A DNA stretch of 64,000 nt from an uncultured Clostridia bacterium (GCA_944387375.1 CALXEQ010000001.1:483-64482), one strand, 5' to 3'. Positions 3,666 through 33,386 are shown, counted from the stretch's first letter. Program-made: numbers and translations. The notes: generated by a model not told the origin, from the sequence alone.

Positions 3666-5423
3666 ATGAAAAGTAAAACAAAAAAGTATAGTATATTTTT
3701 TGTTGTTATGGTTATGGTATTAGTATCAACTTTAGCAGTAAAAGTAAAAGCTGCTGATCCTACAACAGGATCACTTACTATAGTTGCAAAGGAACAACAA
3801 AATAATACTACAAATAATGATCCTTTAAAAGGGGTAGAGTATACTTTATATAAAGTAGATGAAACTGTTGAAACTACAACACAAGCAGAAAGTTATATAA
3901 CTAGCAATTCAGTTACTGGAACAGCAAAAACAACAGGAGAAGATGGAACAGTTGTTTTTGATAACATAGATCTTGGCAGATATTATGTTAAAGTAACTAA
4001 TGTACCAGATGGTGTTGTAGCAACTGAAGATTTTATAGTAGAATTACCAAGAACTAATTCAACAGGTACAGGTTGGGATTATGATATAACAGTTGAGCCA
4101 AAAATAAAAACAGCTTTTGGTAATTTGGAGTTTACAAAAACAGATGCAAATGGTACTCCAATGAATGGAGTTGAATTTAAACTTCAAGTAAAGCAAAATA
4201 ATGGAGCATGGGTAGATTATGCTGCTCAAACTAATTTTACTACAAACAGTGAAGGTAAAATTACATTAAATAATTTACCAAGTTATGATTATAATTCAAA
4301 TACAGCAACTTATAGATTAGTTGAGGTATCAGTACCAGATACTGGATATATTATTAATAATAAACAATTAGCTACTTTAGTATGGAAAGTAAATAATGAC
4401 GGAACAATAACTATAGAAAATGAATCATCACTAGATAGTGATTTATTTACAGTTACAAAAGACGCAAATGTTACAAAAGTAACATATAAAAACGAAAAAC
4501 CAGAAGTAGAGAAAAAAGTTAAAAATGGTGGAGAATATTTAGATATGGTTGGCGCATTTTTAACAGATACTGTAGAATTTAAAGTAACAGCAGGTATACC
4601 AATGCAAATTGCGGATATGAAAACATATAAAATTACAGATAATATTCCACAAGGATTAACTTTAAATAGAGAAAGTATAAAAATTGAAGCAACAACAGCA
4701 GACAGTAGTGAGACAGTACCAACAGATGTATATACATTATCTCAAACAGGATTAGAAGTTACATTTAATCCACAAAAATTAGCTGAAAATAATTATAGTG
4801 CAATAATAATAACTTATACTGCAAAACTAAATATGGAAGAAGCAGTAATAGGTGGAGATGGTAATGTAAATACTGTAACACTTGAATATACAAACAAAGT
4901 TGCAGAAAATGGAGACGAAGAAGATAAAACAACAACTACAGATACTGCACAAGTTCATACAGGAGCGTTATCAATAGAAAAAGTAGAAAAAGGAAATGTT
5001 GAAACAAAGCTTGCAGGAGCTAAATTTAAAATAGCTACTACAGAGCAAAATGCAAAAGATGGAATATTTGTAAAAGATGAAACAGGAGCAGATATTGAAG
5101 TAGAAACAAATGATCAGGGTCAAGCAGTAATAGAAGGATTAAAATATGCAGATAATGAAGCTGATACATCATATTGGCTAGTTGAAACACAAGCACCAAG
5201 TTACATAGAAGATGGAGTAACAAAATATTACAATTTATTAAAGGATCCTGTAGAAGTACAAGTAGGAAAGACAACTCATGAAAGTGCTGTACAAATTGAA
5301 AATGGTAAAGGTTTTGATTTACCAGCAACAGGTAGTATAGGACTTGCAATATTTACAGTAGTAGGTATAGCAGTAATGGCAGGTGCAGTAGTTTTAAATA
5401 AAAAACAAAAAGTACAAGAATAA
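3666..5423 (+). CDS. LPXTG-anchored pilin-like surface protein (putative major pilin subunit)
   Basis: Strong SD agaggagg precedes the start. N-terminal signal peptide (MKSKTKKYSIFFVVMVMVLVSTLAVKVKA). Pilin-motif-like VTYKNEKPEV, E-box-like YWLVETQAPSY, and C-terminal LPATGS with a hydrophobic segment and KKQK tail. Confidence 0.75.
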   Translation: MKSKTKKYSIFFVVMVMVLVSTLAVKVKAADPTTGSLTIVAKEQQNNTTNNDPLKGVEYTLYKVDETVETTTQAESYITSNSVTGTAKTTGEDGTVVFDNIDLGRYYVKVTNVPDGVVATEDFIVELPRTNSTGTGWDYDITVEPKIKTAFGNLEFTKTDANGTPMNGVEFKLQVKQNNGAWVDYAAQTNFTTNSEGKITLNNLPSYDYNSNTATYRLVEVSVPDTGYIINNKQLATLVWKVNNDGTITIENESSLDSDLFTVTKDANVTKVTYKNEKPEVEKKVKNGGEYLDMVGAFLTDTVEFKVTAGIPMQIADMKTYKITDNIPQGLTLNRESIKIEATTADSSETVPTDVYTLSQTGLEVTFNPQKLAENNYSAIIITYTAKLNMEEAVIGGDGNVNTVTLEYTNKVAENGDEEDKTTTTDTAQVHTGALSIEKVEKGNVETKLAGAKFKIATTEQNAKDGIFVKDETGADIEVETNDQGQAVIEGLKYADNEADTSYWLVETQAPSYIEDGVTKYYNLLKDPVEVQVGKTTHESAVQIENGKGFDLPATGSIGLAIFTVVGIAVMAGAVVLNKKQKVQE

Positions 5424-5445
5424 AAAATAAAATTAATAAATAATA

Positions 5446-5482
5446 AAGGATTCTAGTTTAAAACTTAGAGTCCTTTATTTTG
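5446..5482 (+). terminator. Rho-independent terminator downstream of the pilin gene
   Basis: Imperfect hairpin aaaggattctagttt / aaacttagagtccttt followed by atttt. Confidence 0.5.
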
Positions 5483-5561
5483 TAAAATTAGTATATGTAT
5501 TGTCATATAAATTGTAAATAATACTTTTTATGATATAATAACTATGGTGGTAATAATGAAT

Positions 5562-6974
5562 ATAGATGAAAAATATGAAAAACTAATTACTTTTTTTAAA
5601 GAATTATCTAAAGTACCTAGAAATTCTAAAAAAGAAGAAAGGATAGCTGAATTTTTATGTAATTTTGCAAAAGAAAGAAATCTTTGGTATAGAAAAGATA
5701 ATTTTAATAATGTGTTAATTAAAAGAAAAGCAAGTATTGGTTATGAGAATAGAAAAGTAATAATGTTTCAAGCTCATACAGATATGGTATGTGAAAAAAC
5801 TAAGGATAGTACTCATAACTTTGACACTGATCCAATTGAAATAATAGATGAAGGAGATATATTAAGAGCAAAAGATACAACTCTTGGTGCAGATGATGGT
5901 ATAGGTGTTGCATATTTGCTACTTTTATTAGATGATAAAGATATTAAATTACCTGCTATTGAGTGTTTATTTACAACTCAAGAAGAAATTGGAATGAATG
6001 GTGCAAGAGCTTTTGATTATTCAGATATTAACGCTTCATATTTAATAAATTTAGATGGAGAAGAAGAAAATACTGCAATAGTAGGATGTGCTGGAGGAGT
6101 AAGTGTTAATTATTCTAAAGTAGTTAAACAAGAAAAGTGTAAAGGTAAAGCATATAAATTAGAGATAAGTGGACTTTATGGAGGGCATTCTGGTGTAGAT
6201 ATAGATAAAGGGAGGACAAATTCTAATTTACTTGTTGCATTGTTACTTGAAGATATATCAGATATAAAGATAGTATCGTTTAATGGTGGAAGTAAAGATA
6301 ATGCTATAGCAAATAGGAGTGAGATTGTATTTTTAAGTAATCTTAATGTTAAGTCAATTATAGATAAAAATTTATCTGGTGTAACTTTTAAAAATGAAGA
6401 TAAAAATGTAGAAATTAAAGTATCAATATTAGATGATACTCAATATAATTGTATTAGCAACTGTGAAAGTTTAAAATTTTTATCTTTAATAAGAGATTTA
6501 AGGCAAAATGTTATTGAATATAGCAAGGATATAGAAGGGCTCGTTGAAACATCTGGAAATATAGGCATTGTAAATATTAAAAATGGTAAAATTAGTATAG
6601 TCGAGTCTTTAAGATCTAGTGTAGATGCAAAACGTAATTTGGTAAAAGAGTATAATAACAATTTAGCAAGCAGTTTAGAATATGAAATAAAAGAAGAGGG
6701 AGAATATCCAGGATGGAAATATAATAAAAATTCAAAACTTGAAAAAATTTATATTCAAGCATATAAGAAATATCATAATGGAAATGATCCTATTGTGTGT
6801 GCAATACATGCAGGTGTTGAATGTGGAATGATTTATGAAAAACTTCCTCATTTAGATATGATATCTTTAGGTCCAGATGTTAAAGATGTTCATACAGTAA
6901 ATGAAAAATTATATCTTTTATCATGTAAGACATTACTTAATACATTACTTGAAATTATAAATAATTTAGATTAA
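5562..6974 (+). CDS. pepD: Aminoacyl-histidine dipeptidase (M20C, PepD family)
   Basis: N-terminus MNIDEKYEKLITFFKELSKVPRNSKKE is typical PepD. HTDMV metal-binding motif. Length is about 470 aa. Start moved from the track ATG at 5544 to the ATG at 5562, which has GGTGGT SD-like spacing. Confidence 0.8.
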   Translation: MDEKYEKLITFFKELSKVPRNSKKEERIAEFLCNFAKERNLWYRKDNFNNVLIKRKASIGYENRKVIMFQAHTDMVCEKTKDSTHNFDTDPIEIIDEGDILRAKDTTLGADDGIGVAYLLLLLDDKDIKLPAIECLFTTQEEIGMNGARAFDYSDINASYLINLDGEEENTAIVGCAGGVSVNYSKVVKQEKCKGKAYKLEISGLYGGHSGVDIDKGRTNSNLLVALLLEDISDIKIVSFNGGSKDNAIANRSEIVFLSNLNVKSIIDKNLSGVTFKNEDKNVEIKVSILDDTQYNCISNCESLKFLSLIRDLRQNVIEYSKDIEGLVETSGNIGIVNIKNGKISIVESLRSSVDAKRNLVKEYNNNLASSLEYEIKEEGEYPGWKYNKNSKLEKIYIQAYKKYHNGNDPIVCAIHAGVECGMIYEKLPHLDMISLGPDVKDVHTVNEKLYLLSCKTLLNTLLEIINNLD

Positions 6975-7004
6975 AAATATGCACAAGTGTTGCATATTTT
7001 TTTC
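6975..7004 (+). terminator. Rho-independent terminator after pepD
   Basis: Stem atatgca / tgcatat, 7-nt loop, then a TTTTTTT run. Confidence 0.7.
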
Positions 7005-7063
7005 TTTATTTTTTGTATTTTCTATAGTATAATAATGTAAATAAAAAAGGTAGAGATGTAAAA

Positions 7064-8620
7064 ATGTATAGATTAAGTGATATAAAAATACGAGATAATT
7101 TATCCGAAGAGCAAGTAATAGATATTGCACTTAAAAAATATAAAATAAATAAAAATGATGTTAAAAATGCATATATAAATAAAAGATCAGTTGATGCAAG
7201 AAATAAAACCGATATATTTTTTAACTATTCTGTAAATGTTAAATTAAAAAATAATAAAATGATAAAAGGTGCAAAATTTATTGAGGAAGATAAACTTCCG
7301 ACTATAGTAGTAAAAAGAAAAAGTAAATTTAAACCTGTAATTGTGGGAGCAGGTCCTGCAGGACTTTTTACAGCTTTAACGCTTATAGATAATGGTGTAT
7401 TACCTATTGTTATAGAACAGGGATCTAAAGTAGAAAAAAGAGTTAAGGATGTTGAAAACTTTACTAAAAATGGAGTACTTAACACATCATCTAATATACA
7501 GTTTGGAGAAGGTGGAGCAGGAACTTTTTCTGATGGTAAATTAAATACAGGAAATAATTCAAAATTTTCTAAAAAAGTATTAGAAGAATTTGTGAAATTT
7601 GGTGCACCAAAAGAAATATTATATAATGCTAAACCTCATCTTGGAACAGATAATTTAGTAAATATAGTAAAAAATATAAGAGAATATATAGTATCAAAAG
7701 GTGGTATTTTTTTATTTGATACTAAAGTGGAAGACTTTGAAATTAATAATGGAAAAATTTGTGGTGTATATGCAAATAATGAAAAAATTGATACAGATAC
7801 AGTAATACTTGCAATAGGTCATAGTGCAAGAGATACTTTTAAAAAACTTTTAGAAAAAAAAGTAAATATTATTCCAAAAAGTTTTGCTGTAGGTGTAAGA
7901 ATTGAACATTTGCAAAGTAATATAAATAAAGCTCAATATGGAGAAAATGCTAAATTTAAGCTACCACCAGCAGAGTATAAATTAGTATATCATGCTAAAA
8001 ATGGAAGAGTATGTTATACATTCTGTATGTGTCCAGGTGGACAAGTTATGGCATCATCTTCAGAGGAAAATACTATAGTTACAAATGGTATGAGTAATTT
8101 TTTACGTGACGGAAAAAATGCAAATAGTGCTTTACTTGTAAATGTTACACCAGATGATTGTAAGTATGATACTCCACTTAAAGGAATGTATTTTCAAGAA
8201 GAGCTAGAAAAAAGAGCTTTTGTACTTGGTGGCAAAAATTATTTTGCACCTGTTCAAAGAGTTAAAGATTATTTAGATAATATTAAAAGCTCAAAAGTAG
8301 GTAGTGTTTTGCCTACATATAAACCAGGATATACATTAGCTAATATAAATGAGTTATTTCCAGACTATATAAATGATACTTTAAAAGAGGCATTATTAGA
8401 GCTAGACAAAAAGTTAAATGGATTTTCAGATGATGATGCTATACTTACAGCAGTTGAGACAAGAACTTCTTCTCCTATTCAAATAGTAAGAGATAAAGAT
8501 AGTTTAATGTCAAATGTTGAAGGTATGTATCCTTGTGGTGAAGGTGCAGGATATGCAGGAGGAATAATGACATCTGCAATAGATGGAATAAGAGTAGCAG
8601 CAGAAGTACTAAAAAAATAA
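7064..8620 (+). CDS. FAD-dependent oxidoreductase (COG2509-like uncharacterised FAD-dependent dehydrogenase)
   Basis: Dinucleotide-binding motif VIVGAGPAGLFTAL. The second Rossmann segment is ILAIGHSARD. Size of about 518 aa is typical for this family. Confidence 0.7.
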   Translation: MYRLSDIKIRDNLSEEQVIDIALKKYKINKNDVKNAYINKRSVDARNKTDIFFNYSVNVKLKNNKMIKGAKFIEEDKLPTIVVKRKSKFKPVIVGAGPAGLFTALTLIDNGVLPIVIEQGSKVEKRVKDVENFTKNGVLNTSSNIQFGEGGAGTFSDGKLNTGNNSKFSKKVLEEFVKFGAPKEILYNAKPHLGTDNLVNIVKNIREYIVSKGGIFLFDTKVEDFEINNGKICGVYANNEKIDTDTVILAIGHSARDTFKKLLEKKVNIIPKSFAVGVRIEHLQSNINKAQYGENAKFKLPPAEYKLVYHAKNGRVCYTFCMCPGGQVMASSSEENTIVTNGMSNFLRDGKNANSALLVNVTPDDCKYDTPLKGMYFQEELEKRAFVLGGKNYFAPVQRVKDYLDNIKSSKVGSVLPTYKPGYTLANINELFPDYINDTLKEALLELDKKLNGFSDDDAILTAVETRTSSPIQIVRDKDSLMSNVEGMYPCGEGAGYAGGIMTSAIDGIRVAAEVLKK

Positions 8621-8640
8621 TATAAAAAGTGGTGAGATAT

Positions 8641-9999
8641 ATGATGTCGCAAAAAAATATAATTTTTTTAATTAAGGTTTTAGCAGCAGTTATTGTTATG
8701 ATTTTACTTATGTTTTTGTATAATCGTATACTAAATCTAGAAAGCTATGCTAAAGAGCAAGAAAATAAAATTGAAGAGGTATTTTCAAATGTAGAAAATA
8801 ATTTAGCAGTACTAGAGTTATATACAATATATGGTAATCATTTAAATGTTAACGGTTATTTATTAAAAGATTATTTAGAAAATATAACTGTAAACAACAT
8901 GTCTTTAATTTTAGAAGAAGATGATGGACAAGTTCTAGAGTATCCTCTAGAATATGCGCAACAAGAAGAAAAGTATGAGTTTACATTATCTAAAAATATA
9001 AACGAAGGTGTTGATCTTAATAGCATAGCTCAAGGAAATTATTATGTGTTTTTGAAGGTAAATGGAACTGCAGAAGAAAATAATGTAGAAAAATATTTTT
9101 CGCTAGATAATATAAGCATGTATAGTTCAAATGAATATTATACTCTAACAAAAAATAATACAAATAATAAAATAGATGTTTTATTTAATAGCTATTTAAA
9201 AGATGATGAATATAGTTTAGATTATATGGAAATTACCTCTGTGACTTGTAGCTTACCAGAAGACGTTGTAGACATTGTAATAGATCCAGGTCATGGTGGT
9301 TATGATGGCGGAGCTGTATATGAAGACTATGAAGAGGCTGAATTTACACTAGAGTATTCTAAGGCTCTAAAAGAAAAATTAGAGTCTTATGGGTATAAAG
9401 TAGCACTTACACGAGAAGAAGATGTGTATACTGAGTCGTATGGCCCAAATGGACGAGCAGTTATGCCAAATGCAAAAAAAGCAAAACTTGTTTTATCTAT
9501 ACATTTAAATAGTACAGCCTCACTTCCGGTAGAAGGTGGAGTTGAGATATATGCACCAAACAATGCAAATTTAGATTTTGCTAAGTCTTTTGCAGATAAT
9601 ATAGTAAATTATGCAAGTACAAGATATTCTGTAAATGGACAAAATAGAGTGGAAAATGGTGTATATGTATGGACATATAGTGAACAAGATGTAATAGATG
9701 CAAAAGAATATGCAGATTATATGGGATATGAAATGTATGAGAATTTAACTACACAAACGCCTTATCTTTTTATGATAAGAGAAAATGGTGGAATTATGAC
9801 AAAAGCATATGTTGATGGTAGAAATACAAGTATTGGCAATAATCCGTATTATAATAGCAATATAACAGCAGAGGCATATTTATTAGAGCTTGGATTTATA
9901 AACTCACAAGCTGATTTAAATAATTTAATAAACAATAAAGAGGCATATATAAATGCAATAGCAGATGCAATAGTTAGTAATTATTCTGTGTTAAAATAA
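8641..9999 (+). CDS. N-acetylmuramoyl-L-alanine amidase (Amidase_3) with N-terminal membrane anchor and an extra domain
   Basis: DPGHGGYDGGAV...SIHLNS...GVEIY motif series of Amidase_3. N-terminal TM helix. The track GTG start at 8629 was replaced by the ATG at 8641, which follows GGTGAG. Confidence 0.75.
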   Translation: MMSQKNIIFLIKVLAAVIVMILLMFLYNRILNLESYAKEQENKIEEVFSNVENNLAVLELYTIYGNHLNVNGYLLKDYLENITVNNMSLILEEDDGQVLEYPLEYAQQEEKYEFTLSKNINEGVDLNSIAQGNYYVFLKVNGTAEENNVEKYFSLDNISMYSSNEYYTLTKNNTNNKIDVLFNSYLKDDEYSLDYMEITSVTCSLPEDVVDIVIDPGHGGYDGGAVYEDYEEAEFTLEYSKALKEKLESYGYKVALTREEDVYTESYGPNGRAVMPNAKKAKLVLSIHLNSTASLPVEGGVEIYAPNNANLDFAKSFADNIVNYASTRYSVNGQNRVENGVYVWTYSEQDVIDAKEYADYMGYEMYENLTTQTPYLFMIRENGGIMTKAYVDGRNTSIGNNPYYNSNITAEAYLLELGFINSQADLNNLINNKEAYINAIADAIVSNYSVLK

Positions 10000-25923: not shown

Positions 25924-27459
25924 ATGGAAAAAGAAGAAATTTTAATAATAGATTTTGGTGGACAATATAACCAATTAATCGCAAGAAGAGTTCGTGAAAA
26001 AAATGTATATTGTGAAGTTGTACCAAACACAATATCAATTGAAAAAATAAAAGAGAAAAATCCTAAAGGAATAATTTTTACAGGTGGACCATCAAGTATA
26101 TATGAAACTAATGCACCAAAATGTGATAGTCAAGTATTTGAACTTGATATACCAATTCTTGGAATTTGTTATGGAATGCAATTTATGGCATATACTCTTG
26201 GAGGAGAAGTTAAAAAAGCAACTAAAAGAGAGTATGGACAAATGGAAGTAGATTTGGATAACAACTCAAAGTTATTTAAAGGATTTAAAAATAGCAATAT
26301 TTGCCTTATGAGCCATACAGATTATGTAGATAGTGTACCTGAAGGATTTGAAAAAATAGCAAAAAGTAATACTTGTAAAATTGCAGCAATGGAGAATAAA
26401 AGCAAGAATTTTTATGGTGTGCAGTTTCATCCAGAAGTAAATCATACAATTGATGGAGACAAAATAATTGAAAATTTTGTAATAGATATTTGTGGATGCA
26501 AAGGCTTATGGAAAATGGATTATTTTACAAAGACAACAATAGAAAAGCTAAAAGAGAAAATAAAGGATAAAAAAGCATTATGTGCTTTATCTGGTGGCGT
26601 TGATTCTTCTGTTGCAGCAGTACTTTTATCTAAAGCTATAGGTAATAATTTAACTTGTATATTTGTAGATCATGGTCTTCTTAGAAAAAATGAAGTAGAA
26701 GAAGTAGAAAAAATATTTACAGAAAAATTTGATGTAAATTTTGTAAAAGTAGATGCTAAAGAAAGATTTTTAAATAAGCTTAAAGGAGTAACATCTCCAG
26801 AGAAAAAAAGAAAAATAATAGGAGAAGAATTTATACGAGTATTTGAAGAAGAAGCTAAAAAGATAGGAAAAGTAGATTATCTTGTTCAAGGAACTATTTA
26901 TCCAGATGTAATTGAAAGTGGTCTTGGAAAAAGCTCAGTAATAAAAAGCCATCATAATGTTGGTGGACTTCCAGACTATGTAGATTTTAAAGAAATAGTT
27001 GAGCCATTAAGAGATCTATTTAAAGATGAGGTAAGAAAAGTAGGAAAAGAGGTAGGGCTACCAGATTATTTAGTAAATAGACAGCCTTTTCCAGGTCCTG
27101 GTCTTGCAATTAGAATTATAGGAGATATAACAGAAGAAAAATTAGATATTTTAAAAGAAGCTGACTATATATTTAGAGATGAGATTAGTAAGAATAATTT
27201 AGATAAAAGTTTAAGTCAATATTTTGCTGTCTTAACAGATACACGTTCTGTAGGAGTTATGGGAGATGAAAGAACATATGACTATATGGTAGCATTAAGA
27301 GCAGTTATAACAGATGACTTTATGACTGCAAAATTTGCAAAAATTCCATATGAGATATTAGATAAAATATCTAAAAGAATTGTTAATGAAGTTGAGCATG
27401 TAAATAGAATAGTTTATGATATAACATCTAAGCCTCCTGCAACTATTGAATGGGAATAA
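25924..27459 (+). CDS. guaA: GMP synthase (glutamine-hydrolysing)
   Basis: GATase class I domain with ICYGMQ. ATP-PPase SGGVDSSV motif. 511 aa. Confidence 0.92.
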
Positions 27460-27489
27460 AAAATATGGGTAATTTACCCATATTTTTTG
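27460..27489 (+). terminator. Rho-independent terminator after guaA
   Basis: Perfect palindrome aatatgggtaa / ttacccatatt followed by a TTTTTT run. Confidence 0.75.
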
Positions 27490-27516
27490 TATGTAAAGTA
27501 AAATCAATGAATTTTC

Positions 27517-27545
27517 TTTACAAAATTTACATAAAGTGGTATAAT
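27517..27545 (+). promoter_or_regulatory. Strong sigma-A promoter with extended -10 (TTTACA-17-TGgTATAAT) driving the 27.8-33.4 kb operon
   Basis: tttaca at 27517-27522, a 17-nt spacer ending in tgg, and tataat at 27540-27545. Confidence 0.6.
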
Positions 27546-27616
27546 TTACTTGCGTTAAAAATATAAAACTTATAATATTAATATATTATTTGGAAGGAGG
27601 AATGATATGAATATTG

Positions 27617-27676
27617 AAAAAGGAGACAGTTTAATTATGCATTTTAAACAAATTTTAGCAGTATAAAGAAAAAATA
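27617..27676 (+). CDS. 19-codon leader ORF (MNIEKGDSLIMHFKQILAV) in the 5' leader of the operon
   Basis: Near-perfect SD ggaaggagg 6 nt upstream. It lies about 70 nt after the promoter and about 170 nt before the 992-aa gene. Confidence 0.25.
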
Positions 27677-27844
27677 TTAATGTAAATTCATTATAGAATT
27701 AATATCTTAAAGTATATTTAGGATTTATAAAAAAATATTAAATTTACTAAAATATATAAAAGTAATTTAGATAATATTTTATCTTTATTATTTGCTAGTT
27801 CTTCAATGAACTTATTTTAAGTAAATTTATTGGAGGTGTTTTAA

Positions 27845-30823
27845 ATGCAACTGATAACATTAAAGGAAAAAAAGGAAGAAGTAAAGAATTTATTAAATAT
27901 GGATGCAGATTTTATAGTTTTAGATGTAGATAGAACAATAATAAATACTACATCTTGGTATCAAGCTTGTATGTGTCCAAATTTACTTATTCGTGAAGAG
28001 TTTACTAAAGATTTCAAAAAAATTAATGATCTAACTTTTAAAAATCCAACAGAGGATAAATTAAAAGTATTTAGAAAAGAAACTTTTAATTTAATTGAAA
28101 AGACTATTTCTAAAAAGTTTTTAAGAAGAATAAGAAATATTCCTAATATTAGAGGATATTTTAAACTTGGAGATAATACTAATATTTGGAGATTTTATGT
28201 TGCAGGTCTATATACAGCAAATAATTTAGTAAAGATTTATGATGATGCAATAGATTATATAAAATATGCATTTAAATATTATGGAAATAATCTAAAAGTT
28301 ATATTTTTGACTTCTGGTTATGAACCATTTATTCGAGGAGTAGTAGATGGTATAATAGCAAAGACAAATCTTAACAAAATAAACTACTCTGTAATTGGCT
28401 CACAGATATGCTTTGAAAAGTCTAAGATAAAAGAAATATTTCATATGAGTCAATTTGAAAAAGAAAAAATTGTCAAAATGATAATTAAAAATGGCGGAAA
28501 AGTAAGATTTTTAGCAGATGATTCAAAAGATAATGTTGCTCTTTTTAATATTGTAAAAAATAATGGAGGAGTAGCATTAAATATTGAACACCGAAAAAAT
28601 AGTACTAAAAATCCAACATGGAAAAGCTATATGGAAACTATAACTAAAGATTATATAAAATTTGCAGTAAAAAATGATGATTCTACAGCAGGATTAAATA
28701 AAGAAAATATAGTAATGCCTGAGTTTTTAGAGCGACTTGCTGTAAATACAAATGAAATAGGGATAGCTTCTATGAGTAGAGATAATTTTAAAAATACTTT
28801 ATCTTCTTTAAAAGAAAAAATAAAAAATGAAAAAATAAAAGAAGAGTTTGAAAGTAATGTATTAAAATTAATATTTGAAAAATCAAATACTATTTATTTT
28901 AGAGGCAAGCTGTTTTATATGTGGCTTCCACAATATTTATTTATAGACAACAGATCAATAAATGATAGATTAAAAGATCTTTTTAAAACTAGTGCTAATT
29001 TACTAAAAATAGTGTATAATGAGGGTATTATAGATGAAGAATTAACATATTATCAAAAAGTTATTGTATATTCTTTTATAGATCATTTACAAGAGGCAAT
29101 ATTATATATATTAAATTTGATTGAACAAAATAGTTTAGCAAATAACAATATTTATAATACTGAACATGATAAAATAATAGAGTTAGCACAAAATGTAAGT
29201 GATATGTTATATGCACATTTTTATGTAGATGGTATAGAAAAACAAATATTAAAAAATATCTTAGATGATTTAGAAACTCTTGAAATAGTTAAGTCATTAC
29301 CAAGATATACAGATGTATATAAGCGTATGAGAGAGTTAGATGATAATGTTACTATTTTTAAATTTGTAAAATCAATAGCAGATAAAATGTATCAAAATAG
29401 CAAAAAGTTAGATTATATTATATCTTTTCCTTATGGTGGAATAACTCTTGGGTTTGCTATGAGATCATATATGAAATTTGGCTTAAAGCAAAAAGAAGAG
29501 CCAAGACTTTTAAATAGTCATTTTAGTTCTAAGCAAAAATTAAGAGAAAAAAGAACAGAAAAAGATAAAGATTTTTCAATATTTAAATTTATACCTAAAA
29601 AATACAATTGTTATGTTGATGAAATTAAAAAAGGAAATGCTACTATTTTATTACTAGATAATAACGTTACTACTTTTAAGACTTTAGATTTGTGTAAGAA
29701 TTTCTTAACTCAAATTGGAAATGAAGTTTTTGCGGCAGTTGCGGCGGTTAATTATGATAATATAGCAGAATTTTTATTAAATAAAGAAAGTGAAAATTTG
29801 GTACCAAACTGGAGAAAAGTTTTAGATTTTTGTCCAACAGATGAATATGTTACAGCTTTTAATACATGGAATACATCCAGAAAATCTAAAATACTCCAAG
29901 ATGTATTTTATATAAAAGAGTTAGCTCAAAACATACAATTAGAAAAAATAAAAAATATGAATAAAGATTATATATTTAAAGTATGTAGAGTACAAAATGT
30001 TCAAGATTTAAATGCTATAGTTAAAAATGGTGCAAATATGATAGGAATACATGCAGTATATCCAGATAGGATAAAATACTTAAAAAATGAAATAAAATAT
30101 GAACCATTAGAAACTAATTTAGATATAGATGAAAATTTACCAATTGGTATGTTAGAACTTGAAGGAATTAGAGATATTCAAAACTATATACCAGATTATA
30201 TAAAACAAGCTGTTCTTTTTGAAAGACCTTTAAGCATAGATAATATGATAAAGTCATGTGATATGTACAATTTACCAAAAGAAAAAATATATATTCAGCT
30301 TCAGCATAGAACAAATAGAGAATATATACAAACTATAAAAAGTAACTTAAGTAAAAAAGTAATTGCAACAATAGGACTTTTTCAAAAGGATTTTGAAGAG
30401 TATTTTTGGAAAATTCATGATATTTTAGATCCAGATACAGACTATATTTTAATTGATATGTCAAAGCATCAACCAGATTTAATTTCATTTTCTGAAAGCT
30501 ATAAAGATAGTATAGATAAGGTTGCTGTATTAAATCATTTAGCACCTATTATGCAAAATAATTCTGTTCCAGTTATTATTGCAGATGATACTACTGTTTA
30601 CCAAATGGGGTGTTATTTAAAAGAAATTAGCAAATATAACATAAAAATAAAAGGAATAGATATGCAAAATAGTGTGGAATTACCATCAAATGAGCAAAAA
30701 TATCAATATGTAAAATGCAATGATAAAACATATCAAGTAAAAATTAGAAAGTCTGGTACTGAACTTGCTAAATGGGATGAATTTTTTAATAAAAATAATT
30801 ATAAATTGGAGGTAAAACTATGA
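27845..30823 (+). CDS. 992-aa multidomain protein: N-terminal HAD-phosphatase-like, central PRTase-like, C-terminal TrpF/PRAI-like TIM-barrel domain
   Basis: HAD motifs I (FIVLDVDRT), II (IFLTSG) and IV (FLADDSKDN). PRT-fold motif ILLLDNNVTTFKT preceded by FPYGGITLG. C-terminal KVCRVQNVQDLNAIVKNGANMIGIHAVYPD aligns with the TrpF KICGIT...GAD.IGFVF..SPR start. Confidence 0.55.
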   Translation: MQLITLKEKKEEVKNLLNMDADFIVLDVDRTIINTTSWYQACMCPNLLIREEFTKDFKKINDLTFKNPTEDKLKVFRKETFNLIEKTISKKFLRRIRNIPNIRGYFKLGDNTNIWRFYVAGLYTANNLVKIYDDAIDYIKYAFKYYGNNLKVIFLTSGYEPFIRGVVDGIIAKTNLNKINYSVIGSQICFEKSKIKEIFHMSQFEKEKIVKMIIKNGGKVRFLADDSKDNVALFNIVKNNGGVALNIEHRKNSTKNPTWKSYMETITKDYIKFAVKNDDSTAGLNKENIVMPEFLERLAVNTNEIGIASMSRDNFKNTLSSLKEKIKNEKIKEEFESNVLKLIFEKSNTIYFRGKLFYMWLPQYLFIDNRSINDRLKDLFKTSANLLKIVYNEGIIDEELTYYQKVIVYSFIDHLQEAILYILNLIEQNSLANNNIYNTEHDKIIELAQNVSDMLYAHFYVDGIEKQILKNILDDLETLEIVKSLPRYTDVYKRMRELDDNVTIFKFVKSIADKMYQNSKKLDYIISFPYGGITLGFAMRSYMKFGLKQKEEPRLLNSHFSSKQKLREKRTEKDKDFSIFKFIPKKYNCYVDEIKKGNATILLLDNNVTTFKTLDLCKNFLTQIGNEVFAAVAAVNYDNIAEFLLNKESENLVPNWRKVLDFCPTDEYVTAFNTWNTSRKSKILQDVFYIKELAQNIQLEKIKNMNKDYIFKVCRVQNVQDLNAIVKNGANMIGIHAVYPDRIKYLKNEIKYEPLETNLDIDENLPIGMLELEGIRDIQNYIPDYIKQAVLFERPLSIDNMIKSCDMYNLPKEKIYIQLQHRTNREYIQTIKSNLSKKVIATIGLFQKDFEEYFWKIHDILDPDTDYILIDMSKHQPDLISFSESYKDSIDKVAVLNHLAPIMQNNSVPVIIADDTTVYQMGCYLKEISKYNIKIKGIDMQNSVELPSNEQKYQYVKCNDKTYQVKIRKSGTELAKWDEFFNKNNYKLEVKL

Positions 30824-31593
30824 AAAAGATGATTGTTTTAGATTTAGATGGAACTACTTTAAGAAATGATAAGACTGTATCAGATAATACAATAAACACA
30901 TTACTTGAGTGTAGAGGGCAAGGAAATACTATATTATTTGCTACTGCAAGACCACCAAGAGATGCATATAAGTATGTACCAGTACCATTAAGAGATAATC
31001 CAATTATTTGTTATAATGGTGCGTGCATTATATCATCTGAAAAATTAAATGTTTTATACAAAAAAGAAATTCCAAAAGAAGACGTGTTAAAGGTGTTAGA
31101 CATTATAGAAAAACATGGATATAATAACATGTGTATTGAAGTAAATGATGCTTTATATTCAAATTTTGATACAACAGATTTTTTTGGTAATGCTAAAAAT
31201 TGTATAGTAGATTTAAAGGAAATGGAGTTTGAAGCAGCATATAAAGTTATTATATGTAGCAAAAAGCAAATAACAGATGATGTTATAAAGGAATTTCCAA
31301 AATCTTGTAAGGGTATAATTACAGATAATGGAACACTTTGTCAAATAATTAATAGTGAAGCTTCAAAGTGGACATGCATTGAATCTTTATCTAAAAAATT
31401 AGATATAGCAAAAGAAAATATAATAGCTTTTGGTGATGACTTTAATGATTTAGATATGATAAAAAATGCAGGTGTAGGTATTGCTATGGGAAATGCTCAA
31501 CAAGAAATAAAAAATATTGCAGATTTTGTTACAGATACAAATACAAATGATGGAGTTGCAAAATATTTAGATAAAAATATTTTAAGAAAGTAG
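30820..31593 (+). CDS. Cof-type HAD-IIB sugar/phosphoester phosphatase
   Basis: IVLDLDGTTL motif I and GDDFNDLDMI motif IV. 257 aa. ATGA start-stop overlap with the upstream gene. Confidence 0.8.
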   Translation: MKKMIVLDLDGTTLRNDKTVSDNTINTLLECRGQGNTILFATARPPRDAYKYVPVPLRDNPIICYNGACIISSEKLNVLYKKEIPKEDVLKVLDIIEKHGYNNMCIEVNDALYSNFDTTDFFGNAKNCIVDLKEMEFEAAYKVIICSKKQITDDVIKEFPKSCKGIITDNGTLCQIINSEASKWTCIESLSKKLDIAKENIIAFGDDFNDLDMIKNAGVGIAMGNAQQEIKNIADFVTDTNTNDGVAKYLDKNILRK

Positions 31594-31603
31594 GTATGAT
31601 ATT

Positions 31604-32791
31604 ATGAAGATAATTAATAGTAGTAATAGTCCATTAAAGGTGAAAGATGTAGATGTAGCTGATGTAAATATTAGTGAGTATGATAAGAATTCGTGGTTAT
31701 TAGAAGTAGATAACGAGTATTATATGGCTGTTAAAAGAAAGTTTAATAACAATGTAACAAGTACTAAAGTTATTGAACTTGAAAATGCATATTGTAATGT
31801 TTTAAAGCCAGATGATAATTTAAAATTAAATGTTCAGTATGGAGACAAAGATGCAACTATTGTAGATATGCACGGAATAGATAATTTTAGATTTGCAAAG
31901 TCTTTAGTATTTAATGATTCTACAGTAAGAAAAATTATTTTAAAGCTTAAGATATTAGAGAAGGATAAAAAATACTTTAGATTTGGTGCATCTGGTGCAA
32001 GAGAGTCAGATTTTCATCCTGGTGGTGAGGTATATGAGAGTATGCTAATTAGTGGTAAAGATACAAGTGGATATGCACAAAGTGTTAGTGGATATTTACC
32101 TCATGGTAAAGAATTTAGTAAAAGTATATCTTTATATGATAGGGATAAGAGATATCTAAGAGATGAGAGAATTGTATATTCTCATACAGCTATTTTAAAA
32201 AAATGTGAAGCAAAAGATAGAACGTCTTTATATATAAAAATTAATCCTAAAAGGGATAATGTAAGTTTTTTAGATATTTTAAATGAACTTGCTACAAAAC
32301 TTGGAATGGTATCATATGCAGTTCAAATGTGTATACAGACTAATAATACAAATGAGCATACAACTCAAATTAAGGGAAGAGTATTAAGACATATGCCCAT
32401 GAAACCATTTGATGTATTGCAAGATGCAACAGATATAGGACTTGAGCAACTATTTATTATAGATAATCAAAATATTGTTTATGGTGTTGGAACAAAGTAT
32501 AACAGATATGAACCAGAATGGAAAGAGTTTACAGGTGGAAGACAGTATGAAAGAAGAGGTCATATTCATGCAACGATTGTAAATAATAATGATGAAAATA
32601 AACATGAAGTATTTCATTTAAGAGATGCATTTATATCACAAGCATCAAATGTACAAGTTGTTTTAACACCAGTTGATACTGTTTATAGAATTTATCCTTT
32701 ATATAAAAATGGAGATAAATATCTATGCAAAGCAACAGATAAAAATATAGATACTGTACTAGAAAATATTAGAAAAATAGATAAAGTATAG
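31604..32791 (+). CDS. Hypothetical protein (395 aa), no recognisable family
   Basis: ORF in the operon with a 10-nt gap to each neighbour. No motif recognised. Confidence 0.55.
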   Translation: MKIINSSNSPLKVKDVDVADVNISEYDKNSWLLEVDNEYYMAVKRKFNNNVTSTKVIELENAYCNVLKPDDNLKLNVQYGDKDATIVDMHGIDNFRFAKSLVFNDSTVRKIILKLKILEKDKKYFRFGASGARESDFHPGGEVYESMLISGKDTSGYAQSVSGYLPHGKEFSKSISLYDRDKRYLRDERIVYSHTAILKKCEAKDRTSLYIKINPKRDNVSFLDILNELATKLGMVSYAVQMCIQTNNTNEHTTQIKGRVLRHMPMKPFDVLQDATDIGLEQLFIIDNQNIVYGVGTKYNRYEPEWKEFTGGRQYERRGHIHATIVNNNDENKHEVFHLRDAFISQASNVQVVLTPVDTVYRIYPLYKNGDKYLCKATDKNIDTVLENIRKIDKV

Positions 32792-32801
32792 GAGGTATGT
32801 T

Positions 32802-33386
32802 ATGAAAGCGTTGTGTATAAATGGAAGTCCAAGAGAAGATGGAAGTACGGCATATTTAATAGGAAAAGTTGCAGAAGGCATGAGACAAAAAAATATTGAG
32901 GTAAAAAGTTATTGCTTGGGAAAATTAAATATAAATTATTGCCTTGGATGTAAAAAATGCTATAAAGAGGGTATTTGTATACAAAAAGATGATATGGATA
33001 TTTTAATTAATGAACTAAAAAATGCAGATATAGTAGTTATTGGAACACCAGATTATTGGGGAGATGTAAGTGGACAACTTAAAGTGTTTTTTGATAGAAA
33101 TACACCTTATGCAAATACTAATGTAAATAGAATTAATATGCCTCATCCAAAATTTGGAATTGCAATATCAGTAAGAGAAGGGCCAGAAGATTTTGAAAAT
33201 ACTAATATAATTAATTCTATTAATCATTACTTTGGTCATTTGGAAATAACGCCTATTGCAAAACTTGCTCTAACAGATACATCTACATTAGAAGATTTGT
33301 TAAAAAATCAAAAAGAAAAAATAGATGAAGCTTATCAGATTGGACTCAAAGTACTAGATTTAGTAAAAACAAAAAAGAGAATTTAG
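32802..33386 (+). CDS. Flavodoxin-like NAD(P)H-dependent FMN reductase / iron-sulfur flavoprotein
   Basis: N-terminal INGSPREDGST flavodoxin-like nucleotide loop and the CLGCKKCYKEGIC cysteine cluster typical of iron-sulfur flavoproteins. SD aggagg. Confidence 0.65.
   Translation: MKALCINGSPREDGSTAYLIGKVAEGMRQKNIEVKSYCLGKLNINYCLGCKKCYKEGICIQKDDMDILINELKNADIVVIGTPDYWGDVSGQLKVFFDRNTPYANTNVNRINMPHPKFGIAISVREGPEDFENTNIINSINHYFGHLEITPIAKLALTDTSTLEDLLKNQKEKIDEAYQIGLKVLDLVKTKKRI

Follow-up and report, generated by a model that had tools for sequence, protein, structure and literature searches.

Which reactions can be assigned to a 992-residue protein in which three catalytic folds seem to follow one another, and to what kind of pathway might they belong? 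The protein is encoded by the first gene of a four-gene operon in a 64,000-nucleotide stretch of DNA from an uncultured Clostridia bacterium (the window). The initial annotation, made from the sequence, had read from the translation HAD motifs at the N terminus, a phosphoribosyltransferase (PRT)-fold loop, and a TrpF-like C terminus retaining the catalytic cysteine position. Our analysis supports this reading for all three folds, through transitive homology and a structural model rather than by direct detection, and every sequence element quoted in that annotation is present where it had been placed. Two features had been missed: the phosphate-binding motifs of TrpF are replaced in the barrel, and the large gene is accompanied by a conserved partner gene. 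The features discussed below are the following.

27517..27545, + strand: promoter-like site, TTTACA-17-TATAAT with extended TG (consensus match at 11/12 positions)
27845..30823, + strand: 992-aa four-domain protein (HAD, helical, PRT, and PRAI-like barrel), first gene of the operon
27896..28630, + strand: predicted HAD-type phosphatase domain, residues ~18-262 (invariant columns, secondary structure of the model, relatives with PF12710)
28631..29344, + strand: helical domain, residues ~263-500 (pLDDT ~90; common to the wider PRT family)
29345..29944, + strand: predicted type I phosphoribosyltransferase-fold domain, residues ~501-700 (PRT profiles, relatives, Foldseek)
29945..30820, + strand: predicted divergent PRAI (TrpF)-family (beta/alpha)8 barrel, residues 701-992 (transitive profiles, model)
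30820..31593, + strand: Cof-type HAD-IIB phosphatase (PF08282, 1e-61; TIGR00099, 8e-53)
31604..32791, + strand: 395-aa conserved partner (no Pfam match; C11orf54/PTD012-like model)
32802..33386, + strand: NADPH-dependent FMN-reductase-like flavoprotein (PF03358, 4e-20), last gene of the operon

A conserved four-domain protein

The open reading frame at 27845..30823 starts with ATG, comprises 992 codons and a stop, carries a GGAGG Shine-Dalgarno sequence ~9 nt upstream, and is set in DNA of 23 to 26% GC. An exhaustive profile search of a library of 1.8 billion sequences returned 82 homologue clusters at E<1e-30, that is, a family of ~80 clusters, each of ~980 aa and none of them named. Conservation extends over the full length in 29 aligned homologues (28 to 80% identity), and the motif residues D27, D29, K206, D225, D226, D605, N607, T610, T613, C714, and D871 are invariant family-wide. 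This conservation rules out an artifact of the reading frame or assembly, as well as a chance coincidence of motifs.

Direct searches recognized little of this architecture. Neither the window's protein nor any of the 29 family members matched a Pfam model at E<=1, NCBIfam gave only subthreshold matches (PRAI at E=6e-4, FCP1-type HAD at E=3e-3, and APRT at E=0.1), and PDB sequence searches with the single sequence and the full-length profile returned nothing usable for this protein or for its 395-aa partner. The profile alignments that the initial annotation had suggested as a check gave nothing as direct Pfam matches; through intermediate relatives, they support the PRT, PRAI, and HAD assignments alike. 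Judged from its sequence and its model, the 992-aa product is a real, conserved protein that combines a predicted phosphatase, a predicted PRT, and a putative, divergent TrpF-type isomerase in one chain.

The N-terminal domain contains HAD motifs I (IVLDVDRTII, residues 24-33, with D27-V-D29-R-T31), II (FLTSGY, residues 154-159, with T156/S157), and IV (FLADDS, residues 222-227, with D225-D226), as had been noted, and also motif III, represented by K206. All four are invariant or conservatively kept across the family, and the model shows a large helical cap inserted after motif I. This domain of the window's protein had no direct Pfam match, and its profile had no match in the PDB; its relatives P0201 and P0238 pass PF12710 (55 and 35 versus 27 bits), and two family members score below threshold in NCBIfam against FCP1 (E=3e-3) and HAD-IB (E=0.02).

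The stretch that follows, residues 263-500, had been described as a linker devoid of recognizable motifs. It indeed matches no database entry, and AlphaFold2 predicts a helical domain rather than a disordered segment, with helices at residues 372-484 at a pLDDT of ~90. R353, G354, Y358, and P362 (RGKLFYxWLPQY) and R496-E-L-D499 are invariant, and the domain also occurs in ~400-aa proteins composed of the helical and PRT domains and in PRT-PRAI fusions.

A PRT fold with a degenerate PRPP loop

Among solved structures, the PRT domain profile matches 56 chains of the type I PRT fold, which comprise PRTs, PRPP synthetases, and the PurR repressor; the best match is OPRT at 2.8e-5. Foldseek likewise matches the domain to OPRT (4fym), and the relative P0222 passes PF00156 (32.5 versus 26.3 bits). 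Taken alone, the window's protein reached a single PRT model, APRT in NCBIfam, at the E value of 0.1 given above. YGG at residues 530-532 and SSK at residues 561-563 also lie in this domain.

A canonical PRPP loop consists of four hydrophobic residues and two acidic residues followed by xxTGxT. The corresponding region here, ILLLDNNVTTFKT at residues 601-613, includes ILLLD605-N-N-V-T-T-F-K-T613; compared with DD..TG.T, DNNVTTFKT retains the first acidic residue and three threonines, whereas the second acidic residue and the glycine are lost. The loop with DN and TTFKT in place of DD and TGGT had already been recognized, together with the suggestion that PRPP binding may be altered, which is plausible. 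With the second acidic residue and the glycine gone, the domain may bind PRPP rather than turn it over. D605, T609, T610, T613, and the length of the loop are strictly conserved in the family.

A TrpF-related barrel with replaced phosphate motifs

The barrel starts with FKVCRVQNV...GANMIGIHAVYPD at residues 711-741, and the AlphaFold2 model contains eight beta/alpha units at residues 710-983 (pLDDT ~90), in agreement with the (beta/alpha)8 barrel anticipated in the initial annotation. Its relationship to TrpF runs through a sister clade of unnamed metagenomic and genomic PRT-PRAI fusions (e.g., P0207, P0213, P0222, and P0241), which have the same helical, PRT, and barrel core. The barrels of the window's protein and of this clade align by hhalign with a probability of 99.9% and an E value of 1e-33 over 260 columns, and the remote relatives of the family profile have E values of 1e-13 to 1e-26. 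Sister-clade relatives exceed the PF00697 PRAI gathering cutoff (28 to 56 versus 22.7 bits), and the joint profile matches TrpF structures (4AAJ at 1.8e-8; 1LBM/1NSJ at 7e-6). The 992-aa protein itself, like its 29 homologues, does not reach the PF00697 cutoff, and it scores 20.2 bits against the NCBIfam model PRK01222, whose cutoff is 172.

In Thermotoga maritima TrpF, catalysis involves Cys7 at the end of beta1 and Asp126 at the end of beta6. C714 (nt 29984-29986), which lies in the KVCRVQNV segment singled out earlier and is invariant, and D871 (nt 30455-30457) fall in these two columns, aligning in the joint profile to VKICG and ILLDT of 1LBM (T. maritima TrpF). They are the most conserved positions common to both clades.

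TrpF binds phosphate through GGxG after beta6, xGGL after beta7, and SSGVE after beta8. In the window's protein, GGTG is replaced by HQPD (residues 875-878) together with a 12-residue insert, AGGL by ADDT (residues 913-916), and SSGVE by QNSVE within DMQNSVE (residues 939-945); in the alignment, a new invariant acidic/His cluster sits exactly where TrpF binds phosphate. A beta-hairpin (residues 953-966) directly precedes the last helix of the barrel. The sister clade retains KICG, LLDS..GGTG, AGGL, D(V/L)ESSVE, and DDN.NTG.T. Its members have no HAD domain and no partner, and their neighbors encode an APH-type kinase or a 2-hydroxyacid-dehydrogenase-type reductase. The HAD domain is absent from all 11 relatives with GGTG, AGGL, ESSVE, and DDN.NTG.T and present in every full-length protein whose barrel carries HQPD/ADDT/QNSVE. 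This association of HAD presence with loss of the phosphate motifs is statistically weak, representing essentially one evolutionary split.

Foldseek aligned the barrel with TIM barrels including TrpA and KGPDC, and TrpF was absent from the top 50. Since enolase-superfamily, TrpA, and KGPDC barrels all ranked above any TrpF, the fold by itself does not point specifically to TrpF; at 10 to 15% identity and target-normalized TM-scores of 0.3 to 0.6, such TIM-barrel scores are nondiscriminating.

The operon and its conserved partner

The start of the Cof-type phosphatase gene overlaps the stop codon of the 992-aa gene. A homologue is found in 10 of 17 loci, and in other loci a HAD_2, His_Phos_1, or HD_3/YfbR-like phosphatase occupies its position. 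Because these displacements are nonhomologous, a second phosphatase step appears to matter.

The 395-aa partner is more widely linked, with a homologue in 14 of the 17 loci, adjacent to the large gene in most of them; the trio of large gene, Cof phosphatase, and partner also occurs in two isolate genomes, those of Anaerocolumna xylanovorans and of a Bacillus cereus-group member. The partner family comprises ~100 clusters. The partner matched neither PF08925 in Pfam nor any NCBIfam model, and its family profile, including a second search, found no DUF1907, PDB, or more distant relative. Its model (pLDDT 96.3) nevertheless matches the fold of human C11orf54/PTD012 (DUF1907), a zinc-containing beta-keto-L-gulonate decarboxylase, and of acetolactate decarboxylase (ALDC), Foldseek aligning it with 1xcr at E=2.6e-10, with a probability of 1.0, 327 aligned columns, and a target-normalized TM-score of 0.63. 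Identity to C11orf54 is 12%, and at its N terminus the partner carries ~80 additional residues that are rich in beta structure. E316, G319-H320-x-H322, and H338 are invariant in the partner alignment (A2), and R318 and H334 are nearly so; for R317, within ERRGH, the reading comes from the window sequence alone. The resulting pattern, R317-x-x-H320-x-H322...H334/H338, resembles the zinc site of C11orf54, whose ligands are H266, H268, H278, and R263 (PMC12337341), in a comparison of motifs. We infer from this motif and from the fold match at 12% identity that the partner is zinc-enzyme-like, with a predicted zinc site.

Gene content varies among the loci. L011 carries a split form, [HAD-helical-PRT] plus [barrel], and N-terminal-only proteins of ~600 to 700 aa are also found; L015 and L016 have a minimal pair of barrel and partner with no HAD or PRT nearby, and L003 and L009 have the large gene and no partner. 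These four loci indicate that the four activities are not obligatorily coupled. Two reductases suggest a keto-sugar product: an aldo/keto reductase found in L009 where the partner would be, and a reductase of the 2-hydroxyacid-dehydrogenase type whose gene overlaps the stop codon of P0207, a PRT-PRAI fusion. Relatives are fused to PfkB kinase, LOG, guanylate kinase, or P-loop kinase, and distant loci have dNK-like kinases, CYTH, NTP_transf_5, an IMP-cyclohydrolase-like MGS domain, NRPS modules, and exporters as neighbors. The kinase and LOG fusions, together with the dNK-like, CYTH, NTP_transf_5, MGS, and NRPS neighbors, suggest nucleoside-like chemistry.

Proposed pathway

In tryptophan and histidine biosynthesis, a phosphoribosyl group is transferred to nitrogen, and the ribosylamine then undergoes an Amadori rearrangement. 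We propose, tentatively and as a possibility that falls short of probable, that the 992-aa protein unites several activities in one enzyme and applies this logic to a different acceptor in an undescribed small-molecule pathway, with the following steps. The helical and PRT module would join PRPP to an amine or other N-nucleophile, yielding an N-(5-phosphoribosyl) compound from which the N-terminal HAD domain would remove the 5-phosphate. As one candidate acceptor, 3-hydroxyanthranilate is hinted at by a neighboring gene in L013. The barrel, with Cys714 as general base and Asp871 as general acid, would then open the N-riboside and isomerize it to a 1-amino-1-deoxy-ribulose derivative. Its canonical phosphate loops would have been exchanged for the polar cluster H875, Q876, D878, D914, D915, Q941, N942, and E945 because its substrate is, in this proposal, no longer phosphorylated. 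The partner could bind the keto/hydroxyl system of the barrel product and carry out enediolate-type chemistry, whether a TrpC-like decarboxylative ring closure, a C-C cleavage, or an isomerization. The pathway would also require a second, stand-alone phosphatase, and in some lineages the product may be passed to NRPS modules, nucleoside-type kinases, and exporters.

The domain identities, the conservation of residues, and the linkage of the genes are observed, and from them we infer the sequence of the steps, a substrate without phosphate, the chemistry of the partner, and the acceptor. Since the large gene mostly adjoins the gene of the zinc-enzyme-like partner, the 992-aa protein probably signals the presence of a pathway, as yet undescribed, whose product is a nucleoside-like or amino-sugar metabolite. 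It speaks against the stepwise proposal that a simple scheme needs fewer enzymes than two phosphatases plus kinases. A more daring version, which we regard as doubtful, would make the barrel the first TrpF-family enzyme acting on a nonphosphorylated N-riboside, which the fused PRT and HAD domains would generate in situ, and the C11orf54/ALDC-like zinc enzyme a nonhomologous analogue of indole-glycerol-phosphate synthase. Together they would convert PRPP and an amine, by a route not known before, into a heterocycle derived from a ribulosamine, or into a ribitylamine.

Alternative explanations

The degenerate PRPP loop is also what would be expected if the PRT fold served for ligand binding or regulation without catalysis, as in PurR and PyrR, and the enzyme acted on a preformed ribosylamine or nucleotide in a salvage, catabolic, or detoxification role. 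It might, for instance, dephosphorylate and isomerize an N-riboside that had been imported or damaged, and the partner would complete the breakdown. The presence of PurR repressor chains among the weak matches of the PRT profile, the barrel-partner modules of L015 and L016, and the absence of NRPS and exporter genes from the window's operon point in the same direction. So does the position of the operon next to guaB-guaA in the window, guaA being adjacent in L015 as well, although this purine connection is only a hint. We nevertheless find such a role unlikely, given the strict conservation of the PRPP-loop residues and length, the fully canonical PRPP loop of the sister clade, where it is likewise fused to this helical domain and barrel, and the biosynthetic-looking NRPS, exporter, and kinase neighbors in at least 8 loci. 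About as improbable, in our view, is a barrel of TrpF descent that has abandoned the Amadori reaction, its replaced loops forming a metal site (H875, D878, D914, D915, Q941, N942, and E945) for a lyase, aldolase, decarboxylase, or epimerase acting on a sugar acid or keto-sugar, in functional match to the decarboxylase-like partner. The new acidic/His cluster would fit such a site, the partner resembles 3-keto-L-gulonate decarboxylase, and the best Foldseek barrels are metal-dependent enolase-superfamily enzymes, 2-methylisocitrate lyase, class II aldolase, and KGPDC. These Foldseek scores do not discriminate among TIM barrels, however, and it is the two TrpF catalytic residues that are conserved above all others across both clades.

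The sporadic taxonomic spread of the family (Clostridia, Bacillus, Bacteroides, and Bdellovibrionota) and the integrase or transposase genes near L001, L002, L008, and L014 could instead evoke a system for antiphage defense or conflict in which a signal or toxin derived from a nucleotide is produced or degraded, the more so as LOG, CYTH, and P-loop kinase domains recur in conflict systems. None of the four operon proteins matched a PADLOC model, no effector-type domain (nuclease, pore, TIR, or Sir2) was seen, and the NRPS and ABC-exporter context points to secondary metabolism, which makes a defensive function very improbable.

Relation to known systems

The biosynthetic proposal has its nearest parallel in TrpD-TrpF-TrpC, in which PRPP-dependent N-ribosylation is likewise followed by an Amadori rearrangement in a (beta/alpha)8 barrel. 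The barrels are homologous and share the Cys7 and Asp126 columns, and the decarboxylative ring closure of TrpC could be paralleled by the decarboxylase-related partner. The PRT, however, is of the type I rather than the TrpD fold; the phosphate motifs of TrpF are replaced; the chain additionally contains a helical domain and a HAD phosphatase; and the follow-up enzyme would have a C11orf54/ALDC-like fold rather than the TrpC barrel. Recruitment of HisG/HisA-type enzymes is known from nucleoside-antibiotic clusters, as with the PriA homologue AdeK in the adechlorin/2'-amino-dA pathway, and for pentostatin (PMC13055916). As proposed here, such clusters take a PRT and a phosphoribosyl Amadori isomerase from primary metabolism for a nucleoside-like product (PMC13055916). 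They use separate HisG-type ATP-PRT and HisA/PriA barrels and belong to Actinomycetota, unlike the fused type I PRT, TrpF-family barrel, and HAD domain found mainly in Clostridia. This PriA/AdeK case was the only precedent in our literature search, which yielded no described HAD-PRT-TrpF enzyme or "TrpF-like" natural-product enzyme. Minimycin-type C-nucleoside pathways combine NRPS, a ribose-5-phosphate-attaching enzyme, and a HAD phosphatase (PMC6908994), a gene content like that of the distant loci; the likeness is one of logic only, a YeiN-type C-glycosynthase standing in for the PRT and no Amadori isomerase being involved.

If the proposal is correct, the TrpF barrel, among the most thoroughly studied of enzyme scaffolds, has been retooled to work without its phosphate handle and joined to two substrate-preparing enzymes, and the partner provides a bacterial context for the fold of C11orf54, whose first physiological activity was reportedly assigned only in 2025. 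The cassette recurs in genomes of the Bacillus cereus group and of gut-associated Clostridia, and it may direct the synthesis of a nucleoside-like or amino-pentulose natural product that is so far undescribed; under the most daring version, gut Clostridia and some Bacillus would make a class of ribulosamine-derived heterocycles or ribitylamines, elaborated by NRPS in some lineages. Two linked families annotated without function (~80 and ~100 clusters) are now defined by concrete residues, and the domain assignments make the 992-aa "hypothetical protein" annotatable even if the mechanism is wrong.

Upstream region and last gene

The promoter-like site at 27517..27545, a putative promoter by consensus match, lies downstream of a terminator-like hairpin of guaA and ~300 nt upstream of the 992-aa reading frame. 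When a functional tie of the operon to guaB/guaA was considered, cotranscription appeared unlikely in view of this hairpin, the separate promoter-like site, and an adjacency that is conserved only for guaA in L015. Rfam found no riboswitch or leader at gathering level anywhere in the window, and only noise at E<=5 over 27400-27900. The flavoprotein encoded at the other end of the operon, which has a homologue in 3 of the 17 other loci, carries an N-terminal C-x2-C-x2-C-x5-C motif in its sequence.

RESULTS

The large gene opens an operon in the window, and a GGAGG ribosome-binding site precedes it. The operon and its upstream region contain the following features.

~27462-27490: terminator-like hairpin directly after guaA
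27517-27545: strong promoter-like site upstream of the large gene, followed by a leader of ~300 nt
27845..30823, + strand: large gene, ATG start, 992 aa
30820-31593, + strand: Cof-type HAD-IIB phosphatase, its start overlapping the large gene's stop
31604-32791, + strand: partner gene, 395 aa, ten bases after the Cof phosphatase gene
32802-33386, + strand: FMN-reductase-like flavoprotein, ten bases after the partner gene

The AT-rich gap separating guaA from the large gene spans 385 nt (27460-27844), and no Rfam family matched in it. Within the leader, a separate GGAGG accompanies a 19-codon mini-ORF (27607-27666, MNIEKGDSLIMHFKQILAV). The flavoprotein begins with a C-x2-C-x2-C-x5-C pattern (NYCLGCKKCYKEGIC) reminiscent of iron-sulfur flavoproteins.

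The window is AT-rich (23-31% GC), and its GC skew is positive and monotonic; the 992-codon open frame is therefore not a product of chance. The AT-rich composition is Clostridia-like, and identity to proteins of uncultured Clostridia is 55-62%. A word-indexed search matched 30 clusters of ~980 aa, and the large-protein family profile, run exhaustively against 1.8 billion representatives, gave 198 matches, 82 of them below 1e-30. Across a 29-sequence alignment, in which identity to the window protein falls from 80% to 28%, ~85 columns are invariant, including D27, D29, K206, D225, D226, D605, N607, T610, and T613 in the part running up to and through the phosphoribosyltransferase (PRT) region, and C714, D871, H875-D878, D915, D939, Q941, N942, and E945 in the C-terminal barrel.

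The initial annotation had read HAD, PRT, and TrpF-like (PRAI) folds from the translation, and each motif was recovered: HAD motifs at the N terminus (IVLDVDRTII, 24-33; FLTSGY, 154-159; FLADDS, 222-227), a PRT-type loop (ILLLDNNVTTFKT, residues 601-613), and a TrpF-like start (FKVCRVQNV...GANMIGIHAVYPD, residues 711-741). Neither the window protein nor any homologue matched Pfam, and PDB sequence searches with the large protein found no match. Sub-threshold NCBIfam matches of the window protein to PRAI (E=6e-4, residues 809-887), FCP1-type HAD (E=3e-3, 24-75), and APRT (E=0.1, 589-640), of which the PRAI and APRT matches each recur in 5 of the 29 family members, are hints that point in the same direction. 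An AlphaFold2 model built from the family alignment (mean pLDDT 89.8, pTM 0.83) resolves four units.

Residues ~18-262: alpha/beta domain bearing a large inserted helical region
Residues ~263-500: all-helical domain
Residues ~501-700: alpha/beta domain
Residues 710-983: eight beta/alpha repeats, with a beta-hairpin ahead of the last helix

The expected C-terminal (beta/alpha)8 barrel is present in the model. The stretch between the HAD and PRT parts, previously taken for a motif-free linker, is a conserved helical domain in the model rather than a structureless gap, while remaining without a recognized family in Pfam. This domain also lies N-terminal to the PRT core in ~400-aa stand-alone proteins, PRT-HAD_2 fusions, and PRT-PRAI fusions.

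The decisive evidence for the predicted domain identities comes from transitive homology. The family profile reaches, at E values of 1e-13 to 1e-26 and with matches spanning the barrel, a sister clade of helical+PRT+PRAI fusions whose members exceed the PF00697 PRAI gathering score (28-56 versus 22.7 bits); one of them, P0222, also exceeds that of PF00156 Pribosyltran (32.5 versus 26.3 bits). The target-clade barrel (HQPD type, including the window protein) aligned alone to the sister-clade barrel with 99.9% probability by hhalign (E=1e-33, 260 columns). A joint barrel profile matched TrpF crystal structures from P. furiosus (4AAJ, 1.8e-8) and T. maritima (1LBM/1NSJ, 7e-6) as well as 5LHF (1.2e-5), placing K-x-C on VKICG (Cys7) and L-x-D on ILLDT (Asp126); the corresponding residues, C714 and D871, do not vary in either clade. 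The PRT-domain profile matched 56 solved type I PRT-fold chains (OPRT, purine PRTs, amidophosphoribosyltransferases, PRPP synthetases, and the PurR repressor), and Foldseek found OPRT 4fym. For the N-terminal domain, the HAD profile had no match in the PDB; all four HAD motifs are conserved across the family, and two remote relatives, P0201 and P0238, exceed the PF12710 HAD threshold (55 and 35 versus 27 bits). The three folds first read from the translation are upheld by these relatives together with the model, and we regard the domain assignments as very probably correct.

The two clades differ at the sites that define the canonical enzymes. Textbook motifs are present in the sister clade, and in the target clade KVCR replaces KICG, LIDMSKHQPD with a 12-residue insert replaces LLDS..GGTG, ADDT replaces AGGL, DMQNSVE replaces D(V/L)ESSVE, and DNNVTTFKT occupies the PRT loop where the sister clade has DDN.NTG.T. 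The substrate 5-phosphate of TrpF is gripped by Gly-rich loops that follow strands 7 and 8; the window protein's barrel departs from these defining phosphate-binding motifs, an invariant polar/acidic cluster standing in their place throughout the target clade. The HAD domain is absent from all 11 canonical-motif relatives and present in all full-length HQPD-type proteins. This coincidence of motif replacement with an N-terminal HAD is suggestive only, as it amounts to essentially one evolutionary split.

The partner family comprises ~100 clusters, named only "hypothetical protein," and has no Pfam match. Its invariant residues include E316, G319, H320, H322, and H338, with H139-P-G-G-E142, R318, and H334 near-invariant. 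The very confident model (pLDDT 96.3, pTM 0.94) had a single strong Foldseek match, human PTD012/C11orf54 (E=2.6e-10, 327 aligned columns, target-normalized TM-score 0.63, 12% identity). Work from 2025 showed C11orf54 to be the zinc-dependent beta-keto-L-gulonate decarboxylase (PMC12337341; commentary PMC12435205). Its structure is related to that of acetolactate decarboxylase; H266, H268, and H278 bind the zinc, and R263 is catalytic (PMC12337341). By motif comparison rather than superposition, the partner's R317-x-x-H320-x-H322...H334/H338 repeats the spacing of R263/H266/H268/H278.

The comparison drew on 17 loci taken from GTDB species genomes (Clostridia MAGs, Bacillus pfraonensis, a Bacteroides MAG, a Bdellovibrionota MAG, and Lachnospiraceae). 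A partner homologue occurs in 14 of the 17 and a Cof phosphatase homologue in 10, and the flavoprotein in only 3 (4 of 18 with the window's own locus counted). The trio of large gene, Cof phosphatase, and partner is also found in Anaerocolumna xylanovorans and a Bacillus cereus-group isolate. In L011, the large gene is split into [HAD-helical-PRT] and [barrel], and an HD_3/YfbR-like nucleotidase is used. Loci L015 (9995-12062) and L016 (9959-12047) carry a stand-alone 283-288-aa HQPD-type barrel with the partner directly after it and no HAD or PRT part nearby; argS and guaA flank the L015 pair. The partner-less L009 operon (4045-9780) encodes a PAP2 phosphatase, the large protein, and, swapped for Cof and partner, a histidine-phosphatase-family enzyme and an aldo/keto reductase. 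In the Bdellovibrionota locus L013 (7989-14297), an AAA_28 kinase comes first, followed by the partner, the large gene, a HAD_2 phosphatase, and a 3-hydroxyanthranilate 3,4-dioxygenase, the last two ORFs overlapping. In more distant loci, the pair neighbors NRPS modules, CYTH or CYTH-adenylation proteins, ABC exporters, one or two dNK/AAA_28 kinases, an NTP_transf_5 protein, and an MGS/IMP-cyclohydrolase-like protein.

Fusions among the profile-search relatives add a C-terminal PfkB sugar/nucleoside kinase to the full-length protein (P0141), a LOG (nucleotide N-glycosidase) domain between PRT and barrel (P0174), or guanylate kinase to PRT-PRAI (P0222); P0193 joins a P-loop kinase to HAD, and P0257 reverses the order, with PRAI ahead of helical+PRT. 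The sister-clade loci L018 (6121-10483) and L021 (6001-10788) hold canonical-motif PRT-PRAI fusions with conserved-looking neighbors of their own. P0213 lies between an upstream Rv3785_N-domain protein and a downstream APH-family kinase, and a 2-hydroxyacid-dehydrogenase-type reductase overlaps the stop of the canonical fusion P0207.

DISCUSSION

By score, the window protein falls outside the curated PRAI, PRT, and HAD families, and it is best described as known folds in an undescribed four-domain architecture, its barrel TrpF derived with a rebuilt substrate-anchoring site. The partner is obligate-looking, and its fold has only recently been given a function.

The most economical reading is that the large protein is a substrate-channeling enzyme. 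The PRT domain would join PRPP to an amine-type acceptor, the HAD domain would strip the 5-phosphate, and the barrel, with the acid/base pair kept and the phosphate grip lost, would catalyze Amadori rearrangement of the free N-riboside, leaving an alpha-hydroxy-ketone system on which the zinc-enzyme-like partner could act. The same working logic is proposed as in TrpD/TrpF(/TrpC) and HisG/HisA, and AdeK, a PriA homologue, is a precedent for the recruitment of such isomerases into nucleoside-antibiotic clusters (PMC13055916). A ketose product is supported by the reductases that occupy the partner's place in L009 and follow P0207. Since the second phosphatase is repeatedly replaced by nonhomologues, further dephosphorylation would matter, and the kinase neighbors and fusions suggest nucleoside-like intermediates. 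The L013 dioxygenase may hint at an anthranilate-type aromatic amine. Taken whole, with the zinc-enzyme step included, we hold this scheme to be plausible rather than probable.

Other readings bear on the same observations. The PRT domain, whose loop is altered and whose profile matches include both PRPP-using enzymes and the PurR repressor, might be noncatalytic, with the system serving salvage or catabolism; we consider this unlikely. It also seems improbable that the barrel, which retains C714 and D871 and carries the polar/acidic cluster, switched reaction type and became metal dependent. That the cassette is a conflict system is very unlikely; PADLOC recognized none of the operon proteins.

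Tyrosine-integrase or transposase genes lie within a few kilobases of the cassette in L001 (7190-8170), L002 (6301-7281), L008 (10261-10947), and L014 (14101-15198), consistent with horizontal mobility of the module. Upstream of an ABC-type gene, L007 (19614-20192) carries an unusual tandem of three consecutive SAM-I riboswitch aptamers, each full-length (83, 82, and 83 bits), on the same strand with a spacing of ~230 nt.
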